The position numbers were made by a program, and so were the translations under genes. Below are positions 11,143-50,269 of a stretch of 64,000 nt of DNA, in pieces. The DNA is from Candidatus Aenigmatarchaeota archaeon (lineage in GTDB: Archaea > Aenigmatarchaeota > Aenigmatarchaeia > GW2011-AR5). Within the stretch, counting starts at the first letter, position 1; each line of letters opens with the position of its first letter. The DNA is taken from the NCBI GenBank assembly GCA_016187335.1, contig JACPJW010000001.1, forward strand, positions 1 to 64,000, written 5' to 3'. Under the pieces are notes generated by a model. The model ran no database searches and was not told the origin of the DNA. It was given only the letters and a program-made list of their open reading frames with translations.

Positions 11143-11343
11143 CTAGAAACAATTGTCGCTTCTGTTTTTAAAGAATTGCCGGCAGAAAAAGAAAATAGAG
11201 TTTAAATTCGCCATGCAAAGAGTGAATGGAAAATTTCCTCTCCGCAATTCTCTTCACCACGAACCTCTTTTGAGCAATTAAACTTTGCAAAATAAAGTAA
11301 TATTTTCTTTTCCGCAGACGCTTTTCTTTCCAAAGAAAAGGGC

Positions 11344-18042: not shown

Positions 18043-18165
18043 AGCGGAGTGGAGCAGCCTGGAGTGCTCGTCGAGCAACTGGCACGAATGGCCCATAGGC
18101 ATGCTCTAGGATACCCGAAAGCAATTATGCCGGGAAGGTCGGCAGTTCAAATCTGCCCTCCGCTA
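18043..18165 (+). tRNA. Initiator tRNA-Met (CAT) with three introns at 29/30 (18074-18089), 37/38 (18098-18112) and 44/45 (18120-18136)
   Basis: Acceptor AGCGGAG/CTCCGCT (A1-U72), T arm GGCAG-TTCAAAT-CTGCC, three G-C pairs at the base of the anticodon stem; removing 16+15+17 nt gives a 75-nt cloverleaf; each intron fits a strict or relaxed BHB. Confidence 0.9.
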
Positions 18166-49181: not shown

Positions 49182-49336
49182 TGCGAGGGGCCGGATTCGA
49201 ACCGACGAAGGCACTAAGCCACTAGGTATCTCACATGAGACCAGATGGCTCCATGGCCTGAACATAGCCTCAGGACCTAAGCTTGGCTTACAGCTGTTAC
49301 CTGATCTAGCCCCTTTGTCCACTCGGGAACCCTCGC
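49182..49336 (-). tRNA. tRNA-Leu (CAG) with introns at 30/31 (49305-49264, 42 nt) and 37/38 (49256-49228, 29 nt); an alternative TAG reading is possible
   Basis: Acceptor GCGAGGG/CCCTCGC-A, type II variable arm GGC-TTAGT-GCC, T arm GTCGG-TTCGAAT-CCGGC; 84-nt mature product; BHB folds for both introns. Confidence 0.85.
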
Positions 49337-49960
49337 TTAAGGCTTTTGAATTATTGCAACAATATCCATCGGGAACAATTTAAACGCTTTATGGCTGCTG
49401 TCAAAGACTCTTAGAACTTTAAAGCCGCTTTCTTCCAGAAGCTTTCTTAGCTCCTTTCTTGAGAAGAAGTAATAGTAACGATGATACTCATTATCTCCTA
49501 TTTTCCACCGCACGAAATCCTCCTTCCTTTTGAAATTAAGCCTTGGCTGGTTCTTGTTCCAGACGCTTATTATTGCTGACGATCCGGGCTTCATTACCCT
49601 CCACATTTCCATTACGGATTTCTTTCTTGGTTCTTCTCCCTCAATCTGGTGGATAACATTTGCCGCGACAACAGCGTCGAAAACATTATCCTTGAACGGC
49701 ATCGCATCTGCACGCGCGACGGCAAAAAAGGCTTTTATTTTTTCCTTAGAGGCTTTTTCCTTAGCAAGTTTGATCATTTTCTCTGCAAAATCAAAACCCA
49801 CATATTTTTTCCCTTTGATCATGTGTCTGCCAGATCCACATCCTAAATCAAGAATCAAGCCTTCTGAATTAGAGATGAAATCCACTATATCTTTATGGGG
49901 CTTTGTCCTCAAGCGATGCCATTCCGGAGCAATAGAATTCCATACTTCCCTTTGTTTCAT
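49337..49960 (-). CDS. Class I SAM-dependent methyltransferase
   Basis: ILDLGCGSGR, GFDFAEKMI, MPFKDNVFDAV; stop codon abuts tRNA-Leu G1. Confidence 0.9.
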   Translation of the reverse strand: MKQREVWNSIAPEWHRLRTKPHKDIVDFISNSEGLILDLGCGSGRHMIKGKKYVGFDFAEKMIKLAKEKASKEKIKAFFAVARADAMPFKDNVFDAVVAANVIHQIEGEEPRKKSVMEMWRVMKPGSSAIISVWNKNQPRLNFKRKEDFVRWKIGDNEYHRYYYFFSRKELRKLLEESGFKVLRVFDSSHKAFKLFPMDIVAIIQKP

Positions 49961-50022: not shown

Positions 50023-50269
50023 GCTCCCGTAGTCTAGCCCGGCAAAGGAGAAACTGCGTTTCTCCCTTTACCCTCTTCCTTTCTGAAAAAGAAGGGAATG
50101 AGGTTACAAGGAGAGAACCGTAGGTTCTTCTCCTGTTAGGATATCGGCCTCTCAGCACCCTTTCTTTTGAAAAAGAAAGTGTGCACGGAAAGAAAACTTC
50201 AGAAAAGCGTGAACGGAAAGAATGGGTGGAAGTTCGCCGAAGACGCGGGTTCAAATCCCGCCGGGAGCA
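50023..50269 (+). tRNA. tRNA-Glu (CTC) with a ~93-nt D-loop intron (about 50045-50137) and an 80-nt intron at 37/38 (50155-50234)
   Basis: Acceptor GCTCCCG/CGGGAGC-A, anticodon arm TCGGC-CT-CTC-AC-GCCGA, T arm GCGGG-TTCAAAT-CCCGC; 74-nt mature product; exact D-loop junction uncertain by 1-2 nt. Confidence 0.88.

Follow-up and report, generated by a model that had tools for sequence, protein, structure and literature searches.

An archaeal tRNA-Leu gene probably gives rise to two isoacceptors, tRNA-Leu(UAG) and tRNA-Leu(CAG), by means of mutually exclusive 7-nucleotide (nt) anticodon mini-exons that are selected by competing pairings in one precursor. The gene occupies positions 49336-49182, on the minus strand, of a 64,000-nt stretch of DNA (positions 1 to 64,000 of contig JACPJW010000001.1, hereafter the window) from the groundwater metagenome-assembled genome of a Candidatus Aenigmatarchaeota archaeon (DPANN), and we arrive at this reading from sequence comparison and modelled folding. 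An original prediction, made from the letters of the window alone, had proposed that alternative splicing could supply both isoacceptors from this gene, and at the level of sequence our analysis supports it: we find no other UAG or CAG leucine gene in the 90.8%-complete genome, the cassette and its pairing are conserved in relatives, and the dual gene and a stand-alone CAG gene have complementary distributions.

Anatomy of the gene and its two predicted splice paths

By reading of the sequence, this is a class II tRNA-Leu gene of 155 contiguous nt. Its acceptor stem (GCGAGGG/CCCTCGC) is 7 base pairs (bp) long, and 78 additional bases stand between CTAG(G) and CCTAG, the two strands of the anticodon stem. 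Within these bases lie two 7-nt mini-exons, GCTTAGG with anticodon UAG and GTTCAGG with anticodon CAG, both between bulge-helix-bulge (BHB) motifs (Table 1). The extent of the 5′ exon is based on the sequence, on the cloverleaf of both spliced products, and on the orthologous 5′ exons of relatives. The 3′ exon, with its long variable arm (GGC-TTAGT-GCC) and T-arm (GTCGG-TTCGAAT-CCGGC), scores 76 bits against R1, a covariance model of the Leu 3′ half, and is the top match to that model in the genome.

Two possible splice paths run through the gene, and their intron boundaries are exactly those that the original prediction had given. In path 1, positions 49305-49264 (42 nt) and 49256-49228 (29 nt) are removed, leaving the anticodon loop TTCAGGA with a CAG anticodon; in path 2, positions 49305-49283 (23 nt) and 49275-49228 (48 nt) are removed, leaving the loop CTTAGGA with a TAG anticodon. 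A BHB script with strict geometry (a 4-bp central helix, two 3-nt bulges, and a cut after the second bulge base) recovered every helix that had been named, and all four introns, two per path, have a central helix paired at 4/4 positions and flanked by 3-nt bulges. The first intron of path 1 has the central helix GGCT/GGCT (4/4, including two G-U pairs) and a 5-bp inner helix, TCAGG/CCTGA, and the second has TTCA/TGAG (4/4) with a 5-bp inner helix and, after removal of intron 1, a 6-bp outer helix. In path 2, the central helix of the first intron is GGCT/AGCC (4/4, Watson-Crick) with an AA bulge, and that of the second is CTTA/TGAG (4/4), each with an inner helix of 1 bp. ARAGORN, run on the forms spliced in silico, called both as 84-nt tRNA-Leu cloverleaves, one (cag) and the other (tag), as had also been claimed. 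By the script and ARAGORN together, the gene holds two complete and mutually exclusive sets of splice motifs that lead to two valid tRNAs.

The outer splice sites are common to both paths. Beside the docking tetrad, the 5′ bulge consists of A49307, G49306 and A49305, with the splice site between the last two. The first intron segment contains TCAGG at 49300-49304, which is the inner-helix strand for the CAG path, then a variable filler loop, selector 1 (AGCC, 49285-49288), and the AA bulge at 49283-49284. On the other side, TGAG at 49230-49233 is a shared anti-anticodon tetrad, complementary to nt 32-35 of either mini-exon, and the common 3′ splice site is directly before A49227.

From this layout we propose the following mechanism. 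There would be one 5′ splice site, after nt 30, and two alternative 3′ acceptor sites, at each of which a selector (AGCC or GGCU) would pair with exon nt 25-28 (GGCU) and be followed by a 2-nt bulge and then by a mini-exon (GCUUAGG or GUUCAGG). Each mini-exon would be followed, after nt 37, by a 5′ donor site of its own, and the common 3′ site before A38 would be used with either, its upstream UGAG pairing with nt 32-35 of whichever mini-exon is retained. The BHB pair that folds would then be cut by the single alpha-type splicing endonuclease EndA and sealed by the ligase RtcB, and the product would be either tRNA-Leu(UAG), reading CUA and CUG, or tRNA-Leu(CAG), reading CUG. That the two folds form in vivo and are each cleaved and ligated is inferred, as is the ratio in which the products arise.

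Constrained folds containing the CAG-path BHBs gave -59.4 and -54.4 kcal/mol, and those containing the UAG-path BHBs gave -57.9 and -50.9 kcal/mol. The CAG fold is thus the more stable in this genome by 1.5-5 kcal/mol, and the CAG product is therefore predicted to dominate here. Such a modelled CAG excess would fit the ratio of about 10:1 between CUG and CUA codons in the genome.

The arrangement was found by eye in a single gene, and short helices are readily found once G-U pairs are allowed, both of which would suit chance resemblance or an assembly artefact. The comparative data effectively refute this explanation. An analytic estimate puts the chance of a second Leu anticodon heptamer with both 4/4 helices in this intron at about 6e-4, and a genome-wide scan for two cassettes with all helices at 4/4 returned 4 cassette pairs in about 2 Mb (both strands), one of which, the present locus, is inside a tRNA. 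The locus sequence is identical in contigs of four runs from one study and one run from a second study, and its DNA occurs in groundwater metagenomes; the locus was found in no RNA run. In addition, the dual pattern defined below matches 62 genomes against one control match.

A Val-like match in the strict two-cassette scan, at C2:496583, is coding sequence (C2 coordinates belong to the genome studied, G000; the other G-numbers below are genomes of relatives). A loose genome-wide scan for dual cassettes gave about 1500 chance matches and was uninformative. We also noticed a 17-nt exact match, AGCCAAGCTTAGGTCCT, between window positions 49272-49288 and C2:296367-296383 (blastn-short E 0.002). 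It covers selector 1, the UAG mini-exon and the next 4 nt, does not extend further, and may be due to chance. The distant copy was rejected as a tRNA, for it is antisense in an open reading frame (ORF) that, by reading of its translation, resembles tyrosyl-tRNA synthetase.

Conservation, covariation and distribution in relatives

With BLAST and a covariance model, the Leu genes of 40 relatives were retrieved and about 100 loci fetched; the records carry the name Candidatus Aenigmatarchaeota and come mostly from groundwater. The orthologues of the present gene are tRNA-Leu(UAG) genes with a common 3′ exon, at up to 100% identity, and the 3′ exon here is 100% identical to that of the Leu(UAG) gene of G002. 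Synteny also marks the orthology of the locus, since in several relatives the Leu(UAG) gene directly follows a similar 3′ end of the methyltransferase ORF. The internal GCTTAGG, whose conservation the original prediction had made a point of, is an identical heptamer in all orthologues, and the arrangement is found across the phylum. This orthology also qualifies the earlier choice of the CAG path as the default: the folds uphold it in this genome, but most relatives have UAG as the contiguous, canonical product with CAG nested, and CAG is thus not the general default.

The CAG cassette is present, downstream of the UAG loop and upstream of A38, in 17/22 Leu(UAG) orthologues that were found by 3′-exon homology alone. 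In relatives this second anticodon-loop-like heptamer is usually GCTCAGA, and 15/17 cassettes have the canonical loop G-Y-T-CAG-R; as cassettes were located by a loose match to G-[CTA]-[TC]-CAG-R, the CAG core and G31 are fixed by the match. The other 5/22 orthologues are without the long intron at 37/38; of these, three have no intron, the fourth has one of 13 nt, and the fifth has only a 30/31 intron. The UAG loop is contiguous with exon 1 in most relatives. In 17 of the 37 dual genes that we analyzed, including this gene, it also lies behind a 30/31 intron, so both cassettes are mini-exons there; since the selectors of these 17 genes are of the same kind, the enzyme would meet two near-identical acceptor sites.

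We then consider the pairing at the splice sites in these 37 dual genes. Between exon nt 25-28 and the tetrad that precedes the CAG cassette by 2 nt, pairing is 4/4 in 24/37 and 3/4 in 9/37. The combinations of exon tetrad and selector are CGCA:TGCG (11 genes), CGCA:GGCG (9), CGCT:GGCG (7), GGCT:GGCC (3), GGCT:GGCT (2), and GGCT:AGCC (1), and the remaining 4/37 belong to one genus, in which 22 nt of the D-arm and anticodon-stem strand are directly repeated, creating a GGCC/GGCC BHB. The outer pair, 25:(n-2), is G:C or G:T in the GGCT lineages and C:G in the CGCA/CGCT lineages, and the switch from G:C to C:G between lineages is, judged from the sequences, a compensatory change. The selectors TGCG and GGCG complement the exon tetrad and do not copy it. 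A few bases downstream of the cassette, conservation is 0-0.7 bits, compared with values that reach 1.5-2 bits at the selector positions. From these patterns we take both cassettes and their selectors to be under purifying selection, with statistics that are limited by the relatedness of the genomes.

At the other end of the intron, the distal tetrad before A38 pairs with the UAG loop at 4/4 positions in 33/37 genes; with the CAG loop it pairs at 4/4 in 10/37, at 3/4 in 24/37, and at 2/4 in 3. In genes of the contiguous type, CUUAG of the UAG loop also forms an inner helix of 3-7 bp with a proximal element, either CUAAG or UGAG. The proximal and distal anti-anticodon elements are both complementary to the UAG loop, which can therefore pair with either. 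In such relatives, pairing of CUUAG with the distal anti-anticodon would form the canonical 37/38 BHB and give the UAG product, and pairing of CUUAG with the proximal CUAAG/UGAG would form the 30/31 BHB, in which case the UAG loop would be discarded and the CAG product made.

A variant of the dual design occurs in the Leu(UAG) intron of G010 (L008), which holds a complete second anticodon arm, CTAGG-AT-CAG-G-A-CCTAG, with A32, and then repeats the first bases of the 3′ exon; this is a third form. A second architecture is seen in L006/L007 (G023, G009) and also in G263, G292, G299, G301, G307 and G353. In these genes a 16-22-nt direct repeat of the D-arm 3′ strand and anticodon-stem 5′ strand precedes the CAG loop, and the first BHB is in the D-loop register (GGCC/GGCC), not at 30/31.

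To describe how the arrangement is distributed, we used a strict dual pattern consisting of GCTTAGG, a gap, G-Y-T-CAG-R, a second gap, and ACCTWGT. It matches 33/70 genomes of the order (38/70 with five known variants outside the gap limits) and 62/371 genomes of the phylum, in at least 16 families, with 1 control match. A stand-alone contiguous Leu(CAG) arm plus variable arm is present in 4/70 genomes of the order and 59/371 of the phylum, with 0 control matches. Among the 371 genomes the two occur together in 0, against 9.9 expected (hypergeometric P ~7e-6, a value that overstates the case because relatives are not independent). The dual and stand-alone states alternate within four families and within one genus: G299 and G301 are dual, and the CAG gene of G300 is intron-less. 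In G036 and G102, the stand-alone CAG gene combines the loop CUCAGAA with the body of the family's dual genes and so equals the predicted spliced product exactly. Among stand-alone CAG genes, L102 (G036), L197 (G102) and L195 (G300) are identical in loop and body to the predicted CAG product of the same family or genus. From their sequences, the stand-alone genes are compatible with intron loss via a copy of the spliced RNA, or with their having been the source of the dual gene.

We next weigh the alternative that only tRNA-Leu(UAG) is made, the CAG cassette being a remnant (e.g., of fusion or partial duplication of a tandem UAG-CAG pair) or a piece of intron structure. Contiguity of the UAG loop with exon 1 in most relatives suits this alternative, as does the canonical 37/38 BHB, which is the strongest motif (outer helix 6 bp) and has the 4/4 central helix noted above in 33/37 genes, against just 3/4 between the CAG loop and the distal tetrad in 24/37. 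CUG can be decoded by UAG through wobble, the cassette of G007 has C33, and the UAG and CAG genes that stand in tandem in G014, G019 and G051 would suit an origin by fusion. A remnant would be expected to decay, yet 15/17 cassettes are canonical and the nearby downstream sequence is random. Moreover, the arrangement has been kept in at least 16 families, and its selector still pairs with nt 25-28, including in CGCA:TGCG and CGCT:GGCG, which are complements rather than copies. Under the strict patterns the cassette is absent from those of the 371 genomes that have a stand-alone CAG gene, and in the present genome it is the CAG path that folds better. We therefore consider it unlikely that the UAG tRNA is the sole product.

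Leucine tRNA set, codon use and splicing enzymes

The assembly is 1.01 Mb, 47% GC and 90.8% complete, and the window opens its 918-kb contig. We find four Leu genes in it, namely the present gene and genes for GAG, UAA and CAA (Table 1). The original prediction had raised the matter of a separate tRNA-Leu(TAG) gene. Three independent searches found no other Leu(UAG) or Leu(CAG) gene in the genome, an absence that is not absolute because completeness is 90.8%. They used a regular expression for acceptor, D-arm and T-loop; the Leu 3′-half covariance model, built from 15 relatives; and a pattern of contiguous UAG arm and variable arm.

Two candidates were rejected. ARAGORN called a Leu(tag) at C2:580364-580467, which has a Pro-type body beside Pro(TGG) and no long variable arm and so is not Leu, and a Leu-like D-arm match at C2:795106 is inside an ORF and has no acceptor partner. 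The Pro-type gene (minus strand) adjoins Pro(TGG) at C2:580252-580324 and is of some interest in itself: its loop is TTAGGGA, from which the anticodon would be AGG with A34, unusual for Archaea, and it has an intron of about 29 nt in the anticodon-stem 3′ strand.

Codon use is 3.2 per 1000 for CTA and 32.9 per 1000 for CTG, so that CUG is about 10 times as frequent as CUA, and 629 CTA codons occur in 442 long ORFs. Because CTA and CTG are both used, the genome needs a UAG reader, and CUG, the most frequent Leu codon, would be served by one with CAG. This bears on another alternative, in which only tRNA-Leu(CAG) is made in this genome, GCTTAGG is a relic of the ancestral UAG loop, and a separate Leu(UAG) gene lies in the unassembled ~9%. 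The preference of the constrained folds for path 1, the 1-bp inner helices of path 2, and the completeness of 90.8% all agree with it. Against it, the UAG mini-exon is a perfect loop (C32 U33 UAG G37) that follows a Watson-Crick selector, AGCC, and an AA bulge, and in 16 other genomes the same 30/31 intron, with a selector of the same type, precedes a UAG cassette, and no second UAG gene was seen. A near-identical strain, represented by a contig of run X7 from the other study, differs within the gene only at the filler loop (49290-49299) and has the cassettes, selectors and anti-anticodon unchanged; as this is one low-depth contig, its support is weak. Finally, if no UAG tRNA were made, there would be no reader for the CTA codons. 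We regard this alternative as improbable, and we return to the reading in which both isoacceptors are made.

The enzymes that this reading calls for are encoded in the genome. There is one EndA gene (C2:410532-410810), of alpha type, with a product of about 200 amino acids containing PF02778 and PF01974; it is closest to the Methanocaldococcus jannaschii and Nanoarchaeum equitans enzymes and scores only 90 bits against the ARMAN-2 structure 4fz2. On this ground an assignment to ARMAN-2, which genome size, GC content and the abundance of tRNA introns would suggest, was rejected. RtcB is encoded as well (528 bits). Alpha4-type EndAs with an extra loop go with heavy tRNA gene disruption in DPANN archaea, and DPANN tRNA sets are often incompletely predicted (PMC5829648). 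Both points fit the present case, and numerous other tRNA genes of this genome have multiple introns, including a common family of intron and intergenic repeats.

A number of observations count against the production of two isoacceptors. A tolerance of EndA for relaxed motifs is assumed by analogy with other DPANN enzymes (PMC5829648). Here the inner helices of the UAG path are weak, at 1 bp each, and in the relatives the second BHB of the CAG cassette has a C34:A mismatch (3/4) in 24/37 genes and only 2/4 in 3. The cassette has C at position 33 in G007 and A32 in G010. Part of the selector pattern may come from descent of a duplicated, near-palindromic stretch of exon (GGCT/GGCC, GCGC) and not from selection on pairing. 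As for distribution, the test of complementarity is inflated by shared ancestry; 250/371 genomes match neither strict pattern, and these may have variants, intron-containing genes or incomplete assemblies; and G017, G029 and G035 seem to be UAG-only, neither cassette nor CAG gene having been seen in them. Since wobble allows tRNA-Leu(UAG) to read CUG, the cell could manage without a CAG tRNA.

With these points taken into account, we lean somewhat toward the more general conclusion that this is true alternative tRNA splicing in Aenigmatarchaeota, in which a docking tetrad, two selectors and a shared anti-anticodon operate and the ratio of products would be set, and possibly regulated, by folding. 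If this is so, alternative splicing in cis would become known here for the first time, both among tRNAs and among BHB introns; reduced genomes would have a way to retain two isoacceptors in one gene, and the stand-alone CAG genes identical to the spliced product would be retro-copies of spliced RNA. Production of both tRNAs would represent a new mode of tRNA gene expression by protein-only BHB machinery, account for seemingly missing isoacceptors in DPANN genomes, and provide a concrete function for archaeal tRNA introns, a long-standing question. It also suggests that the isoacceptor ratio could be tuned to codon usage via helix strength.

Known systems and other features of the genome

The closest known case is the trans-spliced tri-split tRNA, and the present gene is put together from the usual parts of archaeal BHB introns at 30/31 and 37/38. 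In the Caldivirga maquilingensis tri-split tRNA-Gly (Fujishima et al. 2009), alternative anticodon pieces are trans-spliced, as far as the account in PMC4390854 goes, and the Nanoarchaeum equitans split tRNA-Glu(UUC/CUC) has one 3′ half in common (PMC4390854, PMC4090602). To the extent that these accounts describe them, such tRNAs resemble the present gene in that synonymous isoacceptors come from constant 5′ and 3′ pieces and alternative short anticodon-loop pieces, in BHB joining by EndA and a ligase, and in split points near 30/31 and 37/38. They differ in being assembled in trans from the transcripts of separate genes, and the piece that is used there depends on which transcript pairs. In the present case there are 155 contiguous bases and one precursor, with all pieces between one acceptor strand and its partner and no separate loci with leaders of their own; competing folds in cis would determine which mini-exon is used, equivalent to mutually exclusive exons. 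Provided that both products are made, the gene would be a cis intermediate between ordinary intron-containing tRNAs and trans-spliced tri-split tRNAs.

Genes with multiple BHB introns at non-canonical positions are known from Thermoproteales, ARMAN-2 and other DPANN archaea (PMC3239211, PMC5829648). The present gene is like these multi-intron archaeal tRNAs in its BHB introns at 30/31 and 37/38, its 7-nt anticodon-loop mini-exon, and its dependence on a broad-specificity EndA. In ordinary genes of this class, among them the UAA and CAA Leu genes of this genome, a single set of splice sites leads to a single product, whereas here we find two acceptors, two donors and two possible anticodons. 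An analogy, and only that, can be drawn with eukaryotic pre-mRNA. In the exon 6 cluster of Dscam, mutually exclusive exons are controlled by a docking site and selector sequences, and a constant docking sequence (here nt 25-28) pairs with one selector upstream of an alternative exon. Dscam splicing is spliceosomal and eukaryotic and determines a protein isoform; the system described here involves protein-only BHB splicing and a tRNA anticodon. In the open-access literature that was searched, we found no description of a cis alternative arrangement on one tRNA precursor.

Table 1. Positions of the tRNA-Leu gene elements and of other features (window numbering unless prefixed C2)
Feature	Position	Strand	Details
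5′ exon, tRNA nt 1-30	49306-49336	-	acceptor GCGAGGG, D-arm, nt 27-30 CTAG; common 5′ splice site after 49306
Docking tetrad GGCT, tRNA nt 25-28	49308-49311	-	4-bp central BHB helix with either selector (BHB scan)
Intron segment 1, 23 nt	49283-49305	-	TCAGG 49300-49304, filler loop 49290-49299, selector 1, bulge AA
Mini-exon 1 GCTTAGG, tRNA nt 31-37, anticodon UAG	49276-49282	-	from the sequence; product called tRNA-Leu(tag)
Spacer, 12 nt	49264-49275	-	CCTGA 49270-49274 pairs with TCAGG; selector 2 GGCT 49266-49269; bulge AT 49264-49265
Mini-exon 2 GTTCAGG, tRNA nt 31-37, anticodon CAG	49257-49263	-	from the sequence; product called tRNA-Leu(cag)
Intron segment 3, 29 nt	49228-49256	-	inner helix CATGG/CATG; anti-anticodon TGAG 49230-49233; bulge AT 49228-49229
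3′ exon, tRNA nt 38-73	49182-49227	-	A38, CCTAG, variable arm, T-arm, acceptor CCCTCGC, discriminator A73
SAM-dependent methyltransferase ORF	49337-49960	-	Pfam Methyltransf_11/25; upstream, ends where the tRNA starts
Leu(GAG) gene	C2:254230-254400
Leu(UAA) gene	C2:161413-161685		introns at 30/31 and 37/38 around a single 7-nt mini-exon
Leu(CAA) gene	C2:464462-464733		introns at 30/31 and 37/38 around a single 7-nt mini-exon
Intron-rich tRNA gene	50023-50269	+	acceptor GCTCCCG, ~175 nt of introns
Intron-rich Arg(TCG)-like tRNA gene	56732-56883	-	introns in D-loop and anticodon arm
Intron-rich tRNA gene	18043-18165	+

With default ARAGORN and with Rfam at the gathering threshold, no tRNA was called anywhere within the 64-kb window. 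When ARAGORN was run with introns allowed, the present gene was called Met(cat) with one 73-nt intron, which is a wrong call. Three further tRNA genes in the window are rich in introns and were likewise all missed by default ARAGORN and Rfam (Table 1).

We also observed a repeat family, CCCTTT...AAAGCG-N5-CGGAAA, with 48 copies in the genome, at window positions 11324, 38724 and 50204 and at about 45 other genome sites (e.g., C2:161443, 161627, 464492, 464687 and 239945-242365). The copies are located in introns in tRNA D-loops and T-loops, in the rRNA region and in intergenic DNA, and often adjoin a hairpin, AACTTTT..GAAAAGTT..ATCAAAA. The repeat looks like a mobile BHB intron or an element similar to a miniature inverted-repeat transposable element (MITE).

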